Shown here: positions 36,543 to 45,806 of the stretch, piece after piece | Layout: the number at the start of each line of letters is the position of its first letter | Position numbering within the stretch: position 1 is the first letter of the stretch | Source of the DNA: Desulfobacula sp. | GTDB lineage: Bacteria > Desulfobacterota > Desulfobacteria > Desulfobacterales > Desulfobacteraceae | Reading direction: 5' to 3' (one strand) | NCBI RefSeq assembly: GCF_018645325.1 | Contig: NZ_JABGOU010000019.1 | DNA length: 64,000 nucleotides | Position numbers and translations under genes: made by a program | The notes under the pieces: generated by a model | The model's input: the letters and a program-made list of their open reading frames with translations, nothing else | Database searches by the model: none | Told to the model about the DNA's origin: nothing

Positions 36543-37382
36543 TTATTCTGCTTTTTCTCTTAAAGCCCTGTAGAGTTTTTGGGTGATCTCTCCTGGTTTA
36601 CCTTTACCCAATGGCACGCCGTCAATTGTTTTTATCCCGAGAATTTCAGTAATCGTGCCAGTTAAGAATGCTTCCTGGGCAGAAAAAAGTTCTGTTTTTG
36701 AAATAAATTTTTCTTGAATCTTTATTCCTATATTGCGGGCGAGATCCATTATTACCATTCTGGTTATGCCGGGAAGAATATTCTTTGTCAAAGGATGGGT
36801 TATGATATTACCATCTTTGACAAGAAAAAAATTTGAACTGGTTCCCTCCCTTACGATTCCGTCCTTTGAAACAAAAATTGCATCAAAGGCGCCCTGATCT
36901 TTGGCTTTTTGTTTAGCCATGGAATTGAAAAGAATCTGTACCGTCTTGATATCACAATTTGACCATCTTTCATCCTGCACAGTGATTATGTCTATTCCTT
37001 TTTTTCTTATTTCAGGATCAAGCTCATTCACCTTTTTTATGGTCATTATTATCTGCAGTTTTATATCTTTTTCCCAGGCATGATCCCTTGGTGCAACCCC
37101 CCTTGAAATCTGGATATAAATACCGGCTCTTTGCATGCCGGCTTTTTTAAAAAGATCATGAACAGCACTTTCTATAAACTCTTTGTCCAGTTTTGGGAAT
37201 GACAGACCTTCCATGGACTTTTGCAGCCTGTCCAAATGTTCTTTCAGACAAAAAAGCTTTCCATTGTAACTTGCTATAAATTCATAAACGGCATCTCCAA
37301 ACTGATACCCTCTGTCCTCAATTGGGACATAGGTCTCTTTAATGGGGCGTATGTCCCCGTTTAGATAGGCTAATTCAGGCAT
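36543..37382 (-). CDS. dat: D-amino acid aminotransferase (PLP fold IV)
   Basis: EDRGYQFGDAVYE, HLDRL, RGVAPRDH, CDIKT, EGTSSNFF, ILPGITR. Confidence 0.85.
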   Translation of the reverse strand: MPELAYLNGDIRPIKETYVPIEDRGYQFGDAVYEFIASYNGKLFCLKEHLDRLQKSMEGLSFPKLDKEFIESAVHDLFKKAGMQRAGIYIQISRGVAPRDHAWEKDIKLQIIMTIKKVNELDPEIRKKGIDIITVQDERWSNCDIKTVQILFNSMAKQKAKDQGAFDAIFVSKDGIVREGTSSNFFLVKDGNIITHPLTKNILPGITRMVIMDLARNIGIKIQEKFISKTELFSAQEAFLTGTITEILGIKTIDGVPLGKGKPGEITQKLYRALREKAE

Positions 37383-37538: not shown

Positions 37539-38867
37539 TTAATTAAAAAATTCTATTATTGAGGATTTTATTGTTTTAACCAGAATCTCCATCTCTTCAT
37601 CTTTAATAATATAAGGAGGGGCGATTACAAGGGCATCCCCATCAACACCTGCAAGCCCGCTGGATTTATATATTATATAGCCTTTTTCAAAAAGATTATC
37701 CCAGATACCTTCCACAATTTTTAACGAACGTTTAAAGGGCTGTTTTGTTTTCTTATCCTTTACAATCTCAATGCCCCACATAAACCCTTTGCCCCGGACA
37801 TCTCCCACCTGGGGTATGGGCAACAAATGTTTTTTAAGCAAATCCCCTAATTTTTGACCCTTTAATTTCACTCTTTGAACAAGTTTTTCCTTTTCAAGAA
37901 TTTCAAATAAAGCAAGTCCGGCTGCTGCTGCAACACTGTGGTGAGTAAAGGTTCCACCATGCATAAAACCGCCGCTATTGTCCTTAATCGTATTAAAATG
38001 ACTTTCTTTAACCCCAAAGGCGGAAAGCGCCATGACGCCGCCGGCAAGCCCTTTGCCAAGGGTTACAATATCCGGAACAACATCAAAGTGATTACAGGCA
38101 AAAAATTCACCTGTCCTGCCCATGCCACACATTACCTCATCTAAAATAAGAAGTACATTATGGTGCTGACAAATTTTAGCAATTGTATCTAAATATTCTT
38201 TAGGCGGGAAACAAGCTGCTATGGTTGCTCCTGGAACAGTTTCTGCAATAAAGGCCGATATTGTCTGGGGTCCTGCATTTTCAATCATCTCATCTAGGGC
38301 CAAGGCGCATCTCAACTTGCATGAAGGATATTTAAGGCCATAGGCGCACCTATAACAATAGGGAGCCGGGATATGCAGATTTTCCTTTAAAAGTGGGGTA
38401 AAATAAGTCTTAAAACTTGTCCTTCCCATGGCTGCAAGTGAACCCAGGGTTAATCCATGGTATGACTTCCATCTTCCAATAAGACGATACTTAGTTTCAT
38501 CACCATGTTCAATATGAATCTGCCGGGCAAGCTTTATGGCTGCCTCATTGGCTTCAGACCCGCCTGAAAAAAAATAGAACCGGTTAATATCTCCGGGAGC
38601 TTTTTTAGCAAGACTTTTTGCAAGCATCTCAACAGGTTTGGATGCAAACATGGTGGGATGGATATAATCATGGGATAAGACCTGATTATAAATGGCCTTT
38701 GCAATCGTTTGTCTGCCATGGCCTGCATTAACCACAACAGCTCCCCCGCTTGCGTCCATATATTTTTTGCCGTTTTCATCCTCAATATAAATACCATGGG
38801 CGCTTTTAGCCATTGGCAGGCATGTATCTAATCTTCTATGAAACACATTTCCCGGAATTTCTAACAT
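37539..38867 (-). CDS. Class III PLP aminotransferase (YodT / omega-amino-acid type)
   Basis: DASGGAVVVNAGHG, SGGSEANEAAIKLAR, SYHG.TLGSL, LDEVMCGMGRTG, TLGKG, HGGTF. Confidence 0.9.
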   Translation of the reverse strand: MLEIPGNVFHRRLDTCLPMAKSAHGIYIEDENGKKYMDASGGAVVVNAGHGRQTIAKAIYNQVLSHDYIHPTMFASKPVEMLAKSLAKKAPGDINRFYFFSGGSEANEAAIKLARQIHIEHGDETKYRLIGRWKSYHGLTLGSLAAMGRTSFKTYFTPLLKENLHIPAPYCYRCAYGLKYPSCKLRCALALDEMIENAGPQTISAFIAETVPGATIAACFPPKEYLDTIAKICQHHNVLLILDEVMCGMGRTGEFFACNHFDVVPDIVTLGKGLAGGVMALSAFGVKESHFNTIKDNSGGFMHGGTFTHHSVAAAAGLALFEILEKEKLVQRVKLKGQKLGDLLKKHLLPIPQVGDVRGKGFMWGIEIVKDKKTKQPFKRSLKIVEGIWDNLFEKGYIIYKSSGLAGVDGDALVIAPPYIIKDEEMEILVKTIKSSIIEFFN

Positions 38868-38878
38868 TTCTTATCCTT

Positions 38879-39706
38879 TTATGTAGGTGGGGTCAGGCTT
38901 AAACCAAGGATTTGTCTTGCCTCATCCGGTGTTGCAATTTCTCTGTCCAATATTCCACTTATCTGAGCAATGCGCTTTACGAGCTGCTCATTGGAAGCAA
39001 GCTTTCCCTTGCTGAAATAAATGCAATCTTCAAGCCCTACTCTCACATGCCCACCCATATTTATGGCATGGACAGACATGGGCAGCTGGCTTGCCCCGAT
39101 CCCGGCCACCGTCCATGTTGACCCTTTAGGGATGCTGTTTTTAAGGTGGACCAGGTTTTCTATTGTTGCGGGAATCGCACCCTTTAAACCCATGACAAAA
39201 TCGAAATGTAGGGGCTTGCCCATGATACCCTGATCAGCCAGATCAAGAGCATTTTGAACCATGCTTACGTCAAAAACTTCGATTTCAGGCTTAATACCAT
39301 ATGTTTTCATATCTTTTGCCAAAGCACAAATAAGATCAGGGCTATTGATATAGACAGATGTCGGGAAATTAACAGAGCCTGTTGTTAAACTTGCCATTTC
39401 AGGTGCCAGAGATAGTCTTTTACTTCGTTTTTCATACTCCATACCCGCTCTTCCACCCGTGGAAATCTGAAGGATTAGATTTGTTTCCTTTTTAAGACCT
39501 TGATAGATTTGTCTAAAAATATGGAAATCTGTTGATGCAGTTTCATCAACGGGATTTCGGGCATGAATATGAATTATGGATGCCCCGGCTTTTTCACATA
39601 AAATTCCTGTTTGAATAATTTCATCCGGGCTTATGGGTACATGTGGATTATTTTTTTTTGTGGGAAGTGAACCGGTTGGTGCAATGGTTATAATTAATTT
39701 TTCCAT
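38879..39706 (-). CDS. Beta-keto acid cleavage enzyme (BKACE / Kce-like, DUF849)
   Basis: IITIAPTG, GASIIHIHAR (Zn HxH), STGG, PEIEVFD, GGHVRVGLED; start set at ATG 39706. Confidence 0.92.
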   Translation of the reverse strand: MEKLIITIAPTGSLPTKKNNPHVPISPDEIIQTGILCEKAGASIIHIHARNPVDETASTDFHIFRQIYQGLKKETNLILQISTGGRAGMEYEKRSKRLSLAPEMASLTTGSVNFPTSVYINSPDLICALAKDMKTYGIKPEIEVFDVSMVQNALDLADQGIMGKPLHFDFVMGLKGAIPATIENLVHLKNSIPKGSTWTVAGIGASQLPMSVHAINMGGHVRVGLEDCIYFSKGKLASNEQLVKRIAQISGILDREIATPDEARQILGLSLTPPT

Positions 39707-39864
39707 GTTTACCTTAATTTTATATAAGCTGAAATAATAGTTTTTTAACAATCTCTATCATTGTCAGGAGCTATATTAAATCCAAATCAAAGTTGTCAAT
39801 AACAAACTTATGTTTCATTATTTTATAAAATTTTCATCTTATATTTCAAATAAATTATAAAATT

Positions 39865-40038
39865 TTTAAAGAACTTAAAACCGCCTTTGACTTAGATAGC
39901 GCTCGTAAAGAAGCGCAACGCTTTTATTCATGCGGTGATCCATTCGGCAAATTCAGGACCTGCTGGTTCTGTCTGCCCTGTGAAATAGAGTGCCCCAATG
40001 ATGCACTTTATGTTGAAATTCCGTATTTGATGCGATAA
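39865..40038 (+). pseudogene. 3' remnant of a FAD/Fe-S oxidoreductase (GltD/NfnB-like tail plus 4Fe-4S ferredoxin motif)
   Basis: Frame reads FKELKTAFDLDSARKEAQRFYSCGDPFGKFRTCWFCLPCEIECPNDALYVEIPYLMR*; CxxCxxCxxxCP intact; in-frame TAA at 39826, no ATG start or clear RBS between it and the conserved part. Confidence 0.8.
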
Positions 40039-40165
40039 AAGGGTTCAAAATTTACAAATGATTGAAAATAAAGAAATTGGTTGTTTGAAAATCAGAACCA
40101 TCTGGCCTTTTCCCGAAGATAAAATTAAATTGTGACAAATTACAAAACAATTAAAGGAAATTAAA

Positions 40166-41335
40166 ATGAAGTTAGCCAAAAGAATGGATATTATTCCATT
40201 TCAACGGATCAGAATAATCGTTGAAGAAGTAACCCGCCGTGAACGCCTGGGTGAAAAAATTATTCACCTGGAAATAGGAAGACCTGATTTTGACACGCCT
40301 TCCCATATAAAGGAAGCCGCTATTGAAGCCATTTCAAAAGGGAAAGTACATTATACCTCCAATTATGGAATTATAGAACTCAGAAATGAGATTGCCGCCA
40401 AGTTTAAACAGGATAATGGCCTTACCTATGACCCTTTAGATGAGATAATTGTTACTGTTGGTGCTACGGAAGGCATATTTTTGTCCATGATGGCTCTTTT
40501 AGACCCAGGTGATGAAGTGCTCATTTTCAGCCCATCATTTCCTGCTTATGCCCAATGCGCCAACATGATAGAAGCCATTCCGGTTTTTGTCCCCTTAAAA
40601 CAGGATAACGATTTTGAACCCATTATTGAAGATTTAAAGTCCAAAATCACATCTAAGACTAAGATGATTGTTATCAATACTCCCCACAATCCCACGGGGG
40701 CTGTTTATTCAGAAAAAACGCTGACAGCGCTTGCTCAGATTGCCTTAGAGAATGATCTTCTTGTACTCTCAGATGAAATTTATGAAAAAAATATTTATGA
40801 TGGTTATGAACATTTTTCCATTGCAAGTTTACCGGGAATGCAGGAACGAACCATTACCTTGAACGGATTTTCCAAAAGTCATTGCATGACAGGCTGGCGC
40901 CTTGGCTATCTTGCATCCAGTAAAGAAATTATAGGCGGACTTATACGCATCCATCAGTATGCAACGGTCTGTGCTACAAGTTTTGCCCAGCATGGTGCTG
41001 TGGCAGCCCTGAAAGGCCCCCAGGATGATGTTGAGCTAATGGGCAAAGAGTTCAGCAGAAGAAGGGTGATGATGGTGGAACGTCTTCAAAAAATGCCGGG
41101 TCTTTCAGTATTCAAGCCCAAGGGAGCTTTCTATATTTTTATTAATGTTGAAAAACTTGGAATGACATCCCAGAAACTTGCCACATATCTTTTGGATGAA
41201 GCAACCATGGCAGTTGTACCATGGGGAGACAAGAACATTAGAATTTCCTATGCCAATTCCTATGAAAACCTTGAAAAAGCAATGGACAATATGGAAGCCG
41301 CTCTGAAAAAATTAAAAATTAATTATCAAAAATAA
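40166..41335 (+). CDS. Class I/II PLP aminotransferase (aspartate aminotransferase family)
   Basis: LEIGRPDFDTP, YTSNYG, NTPHNPTGAV, SDEIYE, GFSKSHCMTGWRLGY, PKGAFY. Confidence 0.93.
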   Translation: MKLAKRMDIIPFQRIRIIVEEVTRRERLGEKIIHLEIGRPDFDTPSHIKEAAIEAISKGKVHYTSNYGIIELRNEIAAKFKQDNGLTYDPLDEIIVTVGATEGIFLSMMALLDPGDEVLIFSPSFPAYAQCANMIEAIPVFVPLKQDNDFEPIIEDLKSKITSKTKMIVINTPHNPTGAVYSEKTLTALAQIALENDLLVLSDEIYEKNIYDGYEHFSIASLPGMQERTITLNGFSKSHCMTGWRLGYLASSKEIIGGLIRIHQYATVCATSFAQHGAVAALKGPQDDVELMGKEFSRRRVMMVERLQKMPGLSVFKPKGAFYIFINVEKLGMTSQKLATYLLDEATMAVVPWGDKNIRISYANSYENLEKAMDNMEAALKKLKINYQK

Positions 41336-41346
41336 GGAGAACAAAC

Positions 41347-42108
41347 TTGTTTACAAGAGCTATCGTTAAAACACCCTGCAAAAATATGGTCAATGGAATC
41401 AGCACGGCTAACCTTGGTAAGCCGGATTATACGCTTGCCCAGGATCAGCATAAAGGCTATATTGATGCCCTTAAAAAATGCGGTCTTAAAGTAACCATAC
41501 TTGATTCGGACGAAAATTTCCCGGATTCAACCTTTATTGAAGACGTCTGTCTTATAACACCTAAATGCGCTATCATCACTAATCCTGGGGCTGCATCAAG
41601 AAGGGGGGAAACCATAGAGATTTCAAAAGCCATTGAAGAACTGGACCTGCCTGTGGAAAGAATCCAAAATTCCGGAACCCTTGATGCAGGGGATATTATG
41701 ATGGTAAATGATCATTATTTTGCAGGATTATCTGATCGGACAAACATTGAAGGGGCATCCCAGTTAAACCTTATATTGAAAAAATATGGATACACTTCAT
41801 CAAATATTACCCTTAAAAGCGTTCTTCATTTAAAAACAGGTATTTCTTATCTGGAAAACAACAATTTGCTTGCCTTTGGTGAATTTTTAAACCACCCTGC
41901 CCTGTCTGTTTTTAATCTCCTTGCGGTTGATCCGGATGAATCCTATGCAGCCAACTCTGTCTGGATTAATGGAAAAGTACTTGTTCCAATGGGATTTTCT
42001 AAAACTAATGAAATGATAAAAGCTGCAGGGTATCAGACCATTGAAGTTAATGTGTCGGAATTTAGAAAACTTGACGGAGGATTAAGTTGCCTGTCTCTCA
42101 GGTTCTAA
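41347..42108 (+). CDS. N(G),N(G)-dimethylarginine dimethylaminohydrolase (amidinotransferase superfamily)
   Basis: FTRAIV, PDSTFIEDV, RRGE, LDAGD, HLKTG, KLDGGLSCLS; TTG start after aaggag. Confidence 0.9.
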   Translation: MFTRAIVKTPCKNMVNGISTANLGKPDYTLAQDQHKGYIDALKKCGLKVTILDSDENFPDSTFIEDVCLITPKCAIITNPGAASRRGETIEISKAIEELDLPVERIQNSGTLDAGDIMMVNDHYFAGLSDRTNIEGASQLNLILKKYGYTSSNITLKSVLHLKTGISYLENNNLLAFGEFLNHPALSVFNLLAVDPDESYAANSVWINGKVLVPMGFSKTNEMIKAAGYQTIEVNVSEFRKLDGGLSCLSLRF

Positions 42109-42552: not shown

Positions 42553-43524
42553 TCACTTTAATTTAATCAAACATACAAATATTTGTTTACCTGAGTAATT
42601 AAAGAGTTTGCAAATATCATTCCCGGAAAAGACACACAATTTGATTTGCCCTGAAAAAGAACAATTATCATTTACTTCAGGCAGTTGATTTTCCCGGCTG
42701 ACAACTCCCTGAACTGCACGAGTCAAATAATCAAAAAACTGATCTTGCCACTCGCTTTTATTGCCACATCCATTCTCATGCACTTTTATCCTGTCAATGT
42801 CAAGGGCATTTACAACATCTTTACAATTCGACTCAAGATAGTTAAATACGGCATCACTGCTAGTCATAAATAATGGTGTGTCTCCTTCAGGATTCAATCC
42901 ACCCATCCGGGCCATGCATCTTGACCAAGCGCAGATCCGCTGCCGGGTCATGACAGCTCCCACATCTTTACCTTCCAAAGGTTTTCTTTCTTCAGCTTCA
43001 TCTGGAAAGCTTTCTAATCCTCGCAGGTTTGAAATCAATTTGCCGTGACTTATATCCATATCGTTCAAGACCAGATCAATGCCTTCATTCTGTTCATCAT
43101 ATAATTTCGCCATCTTTAAAAACAAAAGGTCCTGCATCAGTGCTGATTCATCGTGCAAAGCAAATTCCAGGTTTTCTTTTTCACCTTTACCCTTCTTGAG
43201 CTGTGATTTAATGGCTGTCACATCTGAATCATCTGTAAAATAAGGGGTATTCTTTAAAAGTGATTTAAGATTTACTTCATTCCCCTTGTGTATACTTGCC
43301 CAGGAAAGATACTGCTCAAGGTTTTGATCTATAGTCACAGCCTGGTCATCAGATAAAAAAAACGGTGTAACCTTACCCTGTCCAAGCAATTTGTGCAATT
43401 TTGGATGAAGTTCAAAATTTTGTGTCATGGGTAGATATTCAAAGGACTTGAAAAAAGTCAAAACGGTGTCCAACTTGTTTCCAGAGATATGGGTGAAGGG
43501 GAAAAATAATAATCTTATTGCCAT
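42553..43524 (-). CDS. Hypothetical protein, translationally coupled to the cysteine synthase fusion
   Basis: 323-aa ORF overlapping the upstream stop by 10 bp; begins LLFFPFTHI; no motif recognised. Confidence 0.7.
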   Translation of the reverse strand: MAIRLLFFPFTHISGNKLDTVLTFFKSFEYLPMTQNFELHPKLHKLLGQGKVTPFFLSDDQAVTIDQNLEQYLSWASIHKGNEVNLKSLLKNTPYFTDDSDVTAIKSQLKKGKGEKENLEFALHDESALMQDLLFLKMAKLYDEQNEGIDLVLNDMDISHGKLISNLRGLESFPDEAEERKPLEGKDVGAVMTRQRICAWSRCMARMGGLNPEGDTPLFMTSSDAVFNYLESNCKDVVNALDIDRIKVHENGCGNKSEWQDQFFDYLTRAVQGVVSRENQLPEVNDNCSFSGQIKLCVFSGNDICKLFNYSGKQIFVCLIKLK

Positions 43525-45806
43525 TGGTTAACCTTTTTATCGTGAACATTGATACCTAAATTTGTCAATCGTTTCCTTATCTTATCAGCCAGTTGAAAAT
43601 CATTTTGCTGTCTTGCCAGGTTCCGCTCTTTTATAAGATTTTTAATTTGCCTTGAATATTCCATTTTTTCTTCAAAACTGAAGATCTTAAGAACAGAATC
43701 TATTTCTTTAAAACAGCATACAAATTTTTGAGCGTCTTCAGCATTGATTTTATTTTGGTTGATAAGTTTGTTGATGGTTTTAACATTTGCCAGCATTGAA
43801 GAAATAACTCCTGAAATTTTTAAATCATCTTCCATGGACTGAAAAAAAGCAGATTTCATATCATATATAAATTGATCTGTTTCTTCAAATCCAGATCCGT
43901 TTTCAATTATACTTAGAGTGGAAATGCACCGATTGATTTTATCCAGAGTATATCGGGCCTGTTTCAGAGCCTGCTCTGATAAAATCAAGGTTTTCCGATA
44001 ATGATTGGAAATCATCCATAATCGGATAGTTTTTAATTCCCATCCCATGTTAACAAGGGTTTCAAGGGTTAAAGATTCCATACTATGGTCACCTAAAGAG
44101 CCATCATATCTCACTGGATCACAATGCAGCCAATACCTTGCCAGGGTTACTCCATTGCAAGCCCTTGCAATGGCAACTTCGTTTTCATGATGAGGGAAGA
44201 TAAGTTCACGGCTTCCAGTCTGAATATCAAACTTTTCTCCAAAAAATTTCATGGCAATGGCAGCACATTGCAAATGAAGAGAAGGACGTACATTACCCCA
44301 TTGGGTCTTAATTCCGATGCCCCTTTTCAATTCTGAAAGGCGAACTCTTTTCAATAATGTAAAATCCTTTGGGTTACCCTTTTCATAGGCATCAAGATCC
44401 ACTGTAGCACCGGATTTGATTTTATCCAGATTTGTACTTGAAAAGTCGCCATACTCTTTCTGACTGGCAATATCAAAATACAGAGAATGCAATTTTTCAT
44501 AAGCATGTCTTTTTGATTGGAGTTGTCTTGCCACATCAATCATTTCATCAAAATGATCTGATACTTTTGGATAGGCATCTGCCGGGCGGATATTTAAATT
44601 TGAAAGGTCTTGTTTAAACAGATCAATAAAGGTTTGTGTGAACTTTGAAAGTGGTTCCCCAGCCTTTAAAGACCCCTGGATTGTCTTGTCATCATAATCA
44701 GTAATATTTACCACATGATTGACTGCAATCTTATGATATTCAATATATCTTATCAGCAAATCAGTAAATGCATATCTTCGTAACCGACCGACATCTATCC
44801 TTTCATGAACAGTTGGCCCGCAGGTATAAATAGATATTTTTCCTTTTTCCAGCGGTTTAAATGGCATCTTGGATTTCGAAAGCGTATTAAAAAGGGACAG
44901 GGCAATATGATTTTTTACCGAAAAGAGATTAGTGGACAGATACCTTTCTCCGCCGTCGGGAAAAATAACGACAATACAGCCTTTTTTAATCTGATGCGCT
45001 TCTTCAAGTGCTGCAGCCATGGCAGCACCACTGCTCATCCCAACAAAAATGCCTTCCTTTATTGCAAGACTTCGTACATTATCAAAAGCTGTTTCATCAT
45101 CAATATTAATTTTTTGGTCAAAACGATTTTTTTCCATAATCTCAGGGATATAAGATTCCTTCAGATTTTTAAGCCCCTGGATCTTATGTCCGAGATAGGG
45201 TTCTACACATACAATCCTGATATCTTTATTATACTCTTTTAATTTTCTGGAAACCCCCATCAGGGTACCGGTTGTCCCTATGGTTGCAACAAGAGAAGAA
45301 ATCTTTCCATGGGTCTGTTCAAAAATTTCAGGTCCTGTGGTTTCATAATGTGCCTTCCAATTAGATTCATTATTATACTGGTCAGTCAAAAAATACTTAT
45401 CAGGATTTTCTCTTGCAAGTCTGTATGCTTCTTCGATGGCACCATCAGATCCCAGATGTCTTGGGGTTAGAATAATCTGTGCTCCTCTTGCGCGTAAAAT
45501 ATTTTTACGTTCTTCACTTGCATTTTCCGCCATGGTCAGCGCAAGTTTGTAACCTTTGACAGCACAAATCATGGCAAGCCCGATCCCTGTATTCCCGCTG
45601 GTGGCTTCGATAACAATTTTATCTTTGGTCAACTCCCCGGACTTTTCCGCTGCATTAATCATATACAGAGCCGGTCGATCTTTAACTGAACCACCCGGAT
45701 TCATATATTCAAGCTTTGCAAAAATTTTAACCCCTTTTACAGGATTCATTTTTGTTATCTCAACAATAGGGGTGTTGCCTATGGCATCTATAACTGAAAC
45801 TGTCAT
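43515..45806 (-). CDS. Cysteine synthase (CysK/CysM) fused to a non-canonical cysteinyl-tRNA synthetase-like domain
   Basis: aa ~1-295: NPGGSVKDR, EATSGNTG, GTTGT, SSG, PDGGERYLS. aa ~300-763: YTCGPTV, NITDYDDK, RPSLHLQC, FPHHENE, YWLH, C-terminal ARQQNDFQLADKIR; HIGH and KMSKS not conserved. Confidence 0.92.
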   Translation of the reverse strand: MTVSVIDAIGNTPIVEITKMNPVKGVKIFAKLEYMNPGGSVKDRPALYMINAAEKSGELTKDKIVIEATSGNTGIGLAMICAVKGYKLALTMAENASEERKNILRARGAQIILTPRHLGSDGAIEEAYRLARENPDKYFLTDQYNNESNWKAHYETTGPEIFEQTHGKISSLVATIGTTGTLMGVSRKLKEYNKDIRIVCVEPYLGHKIQGLKNLKESYIPEIMEKNRFDQKINIDDETAFDNVRSLAIKEGIFVGMSSGAAMAAALEEAHQIKKGCIVVIFPDGGERYLSTNLFSVKNHIALSLFNTLSKSKMPFKPLEKGKISIYTCGPTVHERIDVGRLRRYAFTDLLIRYIEYHKIAVNHVVNITDYDDKTIQGSLKAGEPLSKFTQTFIDLFKQDLSNLNIRPADAYPKVSDHFDEMIDVARQLQSKRHAYEKLHSLYFDIASQKEYGDFSSTNLDKIKSGATVDLDAYEKGNPKDFTLLKRVRLSELKRGIGIKTQWGNVRPSLHLQCAAIAMKFFGEKFDIQTGSRELIFPHHENEVAIARACNGVTLARYWLHCDPVRYDGSLGDHSMESLTLETLVNMGWELKTIRLWMISNHYRKTLILSEQALKQARYTLDKINRCISTLSIIENGSGFEETDQFIYDMKSAFFQSMEDDLKISGVISSMLANVKTINKLINQNKINAEDAQKFVCCFKEIDSVLKIFSFEEKMEYSRQIKNLIKERNLARQQNDFQLADKIRKRLTNLGINVHDKKVNQWQ

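Follow-up and report, generated by a model that had tools for sequence, protein, structure and literature searches.

BKACE-family enzymes have been divided into subgroups (Bastard et al. 2014, summarised in PMC4922564 and bioRxiv 10.1101/2023.02.15.528638). According to these summaries, G4 enzymes take anionic substrates and are active on both beta-ketoadipate and beta-ketoglutarate, with higher activity counts for beta-ketoadipate (PMC4922564 S1). Some G4 activity on the 6-acetamido substrate is also listed there (eight cases), acetamido substrates being used more by G1 and G5, while G6 is given as a non-cleaving beta-ketoglutarate decarboxylase with no beta-ketoadipate activity (PMC4922564). 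In the supplement of bioRxiv 10.1101/2023.02.15.528638, NetSyn cluster 14 combines a class III aminotransferase with the beta-ketoglutarate-decarboxylating G6 in Proteobacteria, and cluster 12 (G1) contains an aminotransferase, an acetyltransferase and an acetylpolyamine aminohydrolase. The concept of a class III aminotransferase joined to a BKACE-family gene is published for Proteobacteria, so the module is not undescribed; an earlier note on this DNA had called such a route little described in sulfate reducers. No description of the anaerobic G4 version or of an assay of the transaminase, and nothing relevant on beta-glutamate degradation or acetamido enzymes, was found in the searchable literature, outside which lies the original of Bastard et al. 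2014, which may propose a beta-glutamate role.

The pair described here resembles cluster 14, where an aminotransferase of the same clade likewise lies by a gene of the BKACE family, transport genes of the TRAP or Glu/Asp kind are present and beta-ketoglutarate is the keto acid concerned. The partner in cluster 14, however, is under RpiR control, comes from aerobic Proteobacteria and is a decarboxylase with altered catalytic residues, whereas the present pair has an intact cleavage enzyme, predicted to be of the G4 type, and occurs in strict anaerobes. We see about an even chance, judging from sequence, that the pair degrades scavenged beta-glutamate via 3-oxoglutarate to malonyl-CoA and acetoacetate.

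Layout of the locus

The window is a stretch of 64,000 nucleotides from Desulfobacula sp. (contig NZ_JABGOU010000019.1), a genus to which the closest homologues also assign the host. The earlier note had reported two adjacent, co-oriented genes 11 bp apart, and both ORFs, with that gap between them, were found intact on the minus strand, with the BKACE gene upstream and the aminotransferase gene downstream. The features of the region are as follows.

39820..39849, minus strand: candidate sigma-70-like site, the best one upstream of the BKACE gene (10/12 match)
39706-38879, minus strand: BKACE (DUF849), predicted G4-type, 275 aa, ORF intact (PF05853, E=5e-99)
38867-37539, minus strand: class III PLP aminotransferase, 442 aa, ORF intact (PF00202, E=2e-85)
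36543..37382, minus strand: class IV enzyme (D-amino-acid transaminase-like), slightly below the TIGR01121 cut-off; its gene lies 156 bp downstream of the pair

A ribosome site precedes both genes of the pair; that of the BKACE is AAGG ahead of an ATG start, and a TTG at 39751 lengthens the frame. Promoter and terminator scans around the pair gave counts at chance level, and because this includes the sigma-70-like sites, the one listed is only a candidate. The class IV gene also stands behind the pair in three other genomes (G001, G020 and G260) and is absent there in more distant loci; whether it forms part of the unit is uncertain.

Between the BKACE gene and a divergent aminotransferase, gene debris was observed at 39862-40123 (plus strand). 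It comprises a 4Fe-4S ferredoxin tail lacking a start (weak Fer4 match) and a 25-aa remnant of domain II of a 2-oxoacid:ferredoxin oxidoreductase; a deletion probably left these scars, and the gap is smaller in the close relatives G001 and G020. Beyond it, at 40166-42108 (plus strand), lie a class I aminotransferase gene and then a DDAH-like gene (dimethylargininase, below cut-off). These two were considered as pathway members, but their linkage is confined to close kin and does not support such a role. Locus L035 has no class III transaminase, and there the DDAH-like gene comes immediately after that of the BKACE. A CysM-type cysteine synthase fused to a cysteinyl-tRNA synthetase domain (43515-45806, minus strand, 763 aa) also occurs in L035, as does the 323-aa protein encoded downstream of the fusion (42553-43524, minus strand), which is 40% conserved there and gave zero Pfam or NCBIfam matches.

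Active site and subgroup of the BKACE

By profile, TIM barrel and residues, the BKACE is predicted to be catalytically competent, Tyr145 being the one expected residue that it lacks. The Zn ligands H46, H48 and E226 and the catalytic residues R222, D227 and E143 are all kept (Kce numbering E230, R226 and D231), together with S13-L14, R86 and Y119, and F145 occupies the site of Y145 in Kce. The structure model is a Kce-like TIM barrel, nearest to 3NO5. Kce itself (2Y7D) shares the fold, the Zn site, the catalytic residues and 41% identity, but differs in that the host enzyme has Arg86 and lacks Glu14, its motif reading TGSL, with Leu at the Glu14 site, where 2Y7D has TGAE. The score against the NCBIfam Kce model NF052387 was 344.7, below the cut-off of 382, and kamD, kal and kdd had no match in the host genome. 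None of the Kce/G2 marks (Glu14, a score above the NF052387 cut-off, a lysine fermentation context) was therefore found, and the earlier description of a non-Kce BKACE without the Kce Glu is borne out.

The positions of the G4 signature were transferred from printed active-site logos onto the alignment, so that the mapping is itself inferred. On this mapping, T108 (Ser there) is the one printed site at which the 20-site active-site string departs from that of the published G4 example, and the string of the Phaeobacter pca-operon 3-oxoadipate BKACE differs at one site, again T108. Signature residues S1, S5, Y13 and the loop Arg are present; position 11, Ser in the signature, is Thr108, a conservative change (3NO5 has Ala). 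The enzyme matches, on these residues, the G4 type predicted for anionic beta-keto diacids (3-oxoadipate, 3-oxoglutarate). Likeness to the G4 3-oxoadipate:acetyl-CoA acetyltransferase of pca operons (NetSyn cluster 5) extends from the signature to the fold (TM 0.93-0.96), with 45% identity to the Phaeobacter enzyme; the closest structures by sequence are 3NO5, 3CHV and 3FA5. In contrast to the pca operons, no protocatechuate genes lie nearby and the partner is a transaminase. The BKACE falls below the cut-off of every NCBIfam functional model, including the 3-oxoadipate model NF053568 (281.5, cut-off 350).

The near-identity to the pca-operon signature raises the alternative that the substrate is 3-aminoadipate, converted to 3-oxoadipate and then to succinyl-CoA and acetoacetate. 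The 3-aminoadipate would be taken up free or be made from beta-lysine, through an omega-transamination followed by oxidation by AOR. In PMC4922564, G4 activity cases are most numerous on beta-ketoadipate, as this alternative would have it, but the G6 proteins that accompany this transaminase clade use beta-ketoglutarate and not beta-ketoadipate. The score below the NCBIfam 3-oxoadipate cut-off also argues against it, and decarboxylation of 3-oxoadipate is established to give levulinate, a poor end for loci with G6 or CMD-family proteins. We regard 3-aminoadipate, which suits the G4 signature no less well than beta-glutamate and is the strongest of the alternatives, as an unlikely substrate.

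The G6 marks R2, E6, I14, F18 and N21 and the G6 loss of E143 and D231 (Kce numbering) were not observed; the Zn ligands, E143, R222 and D227 are kept, and the BKACE is therefore not a G6 protein. This bears on a variant of the beta-glutamate reading in which 3-oxoglutarate would be decarboxylated or acetylated by the BKACE-family protein rather than cleaved to malonyl-CoA. The Phe found where Kce has Tyr145, a feature shared with the non-canonical BsfD, and the functional interchange of G6 and CMD-family proteins with BKACE are consistent with such a reaction. F145 is not disqualifying for cleavage, however, because the published G4 example likewise has Phe there, and E143, R222 and D227 are intact where G6 loses E143 and D227. 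A non-cleaving reaction is accordingly improbable.

Among 80 related loci, 19 BKACEs are linked to the transaminase clade, with Arg86 in 17 and Arg14 in two, and 0 of the 22 Glu14 Kce genes in these loci adjoin a transaminase of this clade. Taken together, the G4 signature, Arg86 in the linked BKACEs and the Kce-like fold point to a beta-keto diacid as the most likely substrate, within a class that does not separate 3-oxoglutarate from 3-oxoadipate. An Arg14-type BKACE with intact catalytic residues, linked to the same transaminase clade, was observed in Syntrophales-like genomes (L088, L111, L206-L209, L249-L258) and is without a match among the published BKACE groups. In a Pseudobdellovibrionaceae genome (L116:8902-10861), a 72%-identical G4 BKACE lies beside an ATP-grasp protein, with no transaminase partner.

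The transaminase clade and conservation of the pair

The aminotransferase has intact D243 (PLP Asp) and K272 (PLP Lys) and the clade residues R11, H70 and H303. Its best model was PRK07483 (NF005685; 451.4, cut-off 485), with 421.9 against the YodT equivalog (PRK06917, NF005375; cut-off 535) and 283.6 against the BioA model (cut-off 405). In a quick ML tree, calculated without bootstrap, it forms one clade (SH-aLRT 99) with YodT, the partner transaminases of Bacillota and the PRK07483 enzymes of Proteobacteria, and Kat-like proteins fall far outside (best match 29% over 126 aa). A role in which the transaminase follows the BKACE and takes a 3-aminoacyl-CoA, like Kat in the alternative lysine fermentation route, would fit the Kce-Kat pairs that exist and are alike at Pfam level (L050, L071). 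Given the distance of the Kat-like proteins, a BKACE lacking Glu14 and a genome lacking kamD, kdd and kal, this role is largely refuted and we find it scarcely credible.

R11, H70 and H303 occur in each of the five partner types, and both YodT sequences have other residues at these positions. Bacillus YodT (PRK06917) shares the clade and 40% identity, but besides lacking these residues it has, in place of a BKACE, a CoA-transferase, a deacylase, an acetyltransferase and KamA as partners. The phylogeny proposed in the earlier note as a check thus sets Kat-like proteins apart and keeps YodT as a clade member that lacks these three residues. By its residues the aminotransferase groups with the partners of beta-ketoglutarate decarboxylases and not with YodT. 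From the clade residues and its partners, it is predicted to be a beta-amino-diacid transaminase.

The substrate favoured in the earlier note was N-epsilon-acetyl-beta-lysine, which would pass through 6-acetamido-3-oxohexanoate to 4-acetamidobutyryl-CoA and acetoacetate. Transamination and cleavage chemistry of N-acetyl-beta-lysine was reportedly described in Barker's Pseudomonas work. The nesting of YodT, from an operon of the yodT-yodSR-yodQ-yodP-kamA type, in the same clade speaks for this substrate, as do the eight 6-acetamido cases for G4 in PMC4922564. The link between YodT and N-acetyl-beta-lysine is one of operon context and nothing beyond it, YodT being listed as uncharacterised (PMC6522883). 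Against the substrate stand Arg86 and the anionic signature of the BKACE, and the transaminase residues that YodT lacks. No deacetylase, GABA or acetyltransferase genes were recognised in the linked loci, nor a deacetylase in the host cluster; neither ablA nor ablB was found above cut-off in the host genome, and ablB occurs in one of 24 pair-bearing genomes. Acetamido substrates are, moreover, rather a G1/G5 use, and it is the G1 cluster 12 that contains the acetylpolyamine aminohydrolase. N-acetyl-beta-lysine is very improbable as the substrate, and assignment of the BKACE to G4 from its active-site residues, another check suggested earlier, likewise does not favour an acetamido compound.

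A second BKACE of the host (L131, G000:C152:2053-6576) has a G1-like signature and is widespread in the genus. Its neighbours are an AsnC-type regulator, a distant class III aminotransferase (27%), an AMP-ligase and a TRAP transporter. L131 was considered as an N-acetyl-beta-lysine locus and rejected; with its G1-like signature and these neighbours it is a separate system.

Whether the pair is conserved together in other genomes had been posed as a test, and it is. Among 51 Desulfobacula genomes, 12 have an orthologue of the transaminase and 11 a close BKACE; all 11 of the latter also have the transaminase, adjacent wherever contigs allow. In a 401-genome sample of the phylum, 42 further genomes have a close transaminase, and in 15 of these a BKACE lies within ~9 kb. 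These counts include kin and are hence not independent. The pair turns up elsewhere in the Desulfobacterota as well as in Bacillota and Spirochaetes, in the order BKACE-aminotransferase, aminotransferase-BKACE or with TAXI-TRAP and DUF1850 in between, and because the order is reshuffled across phyla, conservation argues for functional coupling. Around some close G4 orthologues (L037, L038, L122), a transaminase of this kind is missing from the surrounding 8-10 kb.

Other loci contain ABC binders for Gln or Glu/Asp, DAACS carriers, and AtoDA or GDH, those of the pair in Bacillota and Spirochaetes sometimes AtoDA, TAXI or DAACS carriers. In the closest relatives a TAXI-TRAP is inserted, whose binder has the Thermus Glu/Gln binder 1US5 as its best structural relative. 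The binder keeps four of six VcGluP ligand residues (Y45, S75, Q93 and E125), Tyr200 and Met201 being replaced by Phe and Thr, and the transporter is predicted to be of the glutamate type. Proteobacterial members of the clade adjoin RpiR, Gln or Glu/Asp transport genes and a BKACE-like or CMD-family gene, the BKACE-like neighbours carrying the G6 marks R2, E6, I14 and N21. CMD-family genes replace the BKACE in some loci and flank the transaminase in some Desulfobacterota too.

A recurrent Desulfobacterota module was also observed (L260-L263, L267, L271, L038, L040, L122), composed of IclR, BKACE, class III transaminase, Liv-type ABC, AOR-MoaD and sometimes GDH. The 3-aminoadipate alternative would account for this recurrence of AOR and GDH, but no AOR adjoins the host pair or its closest TAXI-linked relatives.

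A proposed route from beta-glutamate

The simplest keto acid that a G4 cleaver and a G6 decarboxylase could both use would be 3-oxoglutarate, formed by transamination of beta-glutamate. Decarboxylation of 3-oxoglutarate yields usable acetoacetate, consistent with the CMD-family partner genes. In the proposed route, imported beta-glutamate (3-aminoglutarate), which methanogens and some bacteria are known to use as an osmolyte, would be the substrate of the pair. The class III enzyme would pass its beta-amino group on to a 2-oxo acid, for which 2-oxoglutarate, regenerated by glutamate dehydrogenase, is the probable candidate, and so form 3-oxoglutarate. With acetyl-CoA, the G4 BKACE would then cleave 3-oxoglutarate to malonyl-CoA and acetoacetate, Arg86 holding the distal carboxylate. 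Acetoacetate-CoA ligase and thiolase, encoded elsewhere in the genome, could return the acetoacetate to acetyl-CoA, and malonyl-CoA may enter lipid synthesis or be decarboxylated; the genome also encodes GDH, carboxyltransferases and a Na+-decarboxylase beta subunit. The energy of the carbon-carbon bond would be kept as a thioester, in contrast to the plain 3-oxoglutarate decarboxylation of the proteobacterial version. The two-step sequence put forward in the earlier note, from beta-amino acid to beta-keto acid to cleavage, is well supported by the cross-lineage pairing, the varied gene order and the fitting enzymes.

The substrate would have to be scavenged, because glutamate 2,3-aminomutase (eam) was not found above cut-off in the host genome or in 24 pair-bearing genomes, and the route looks like scavenging rather than glutamate fermentation. 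Several observations count against beta-glutamate: the AOR and MoaD of the wider deltaproteobacterial module have no role in the scheme, F145 stands in place of the canonical Tyr, and the 90%-complete host genome has no orthologous TAXI transporter (best TAXI 36%). More tentatively, and at somewhat below an even chance, beta-glutamate consumption conserving energy as malonyl-CoA may be widespread in anaerobes, with one transaminase clade having recruited at least four downstream enzymes (G4 BKACE, Arg14-type BKACE, G6 decarboxylase and CMD-family protein).

Beta-amino-acid osmolytes accumulate because their producers barely turn them over (PMC1224877), and the pair is a two-enzyme candidate for their recycling by sulfate reducers in anoxic sediment. 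If correct, beta-glutamate as used here would make a methanogen osmolyte food for a sulfate reducer, give G4 beta-ketoglutarate cleavage a physiological role and provide a substrate for a large unannotated transaminase family (PRK07483). Relatives of the pair occur in cultured Bacillota, e.g. Anaerospora hongkongensis. Elsewhere in the host genome (L272, G000:C109:17196-20456), two KamA-like radical SAM genes score under the ablA and eam cut-offs; a glutaminase-like gene and an ABC transporter for polar amino acids are close by.
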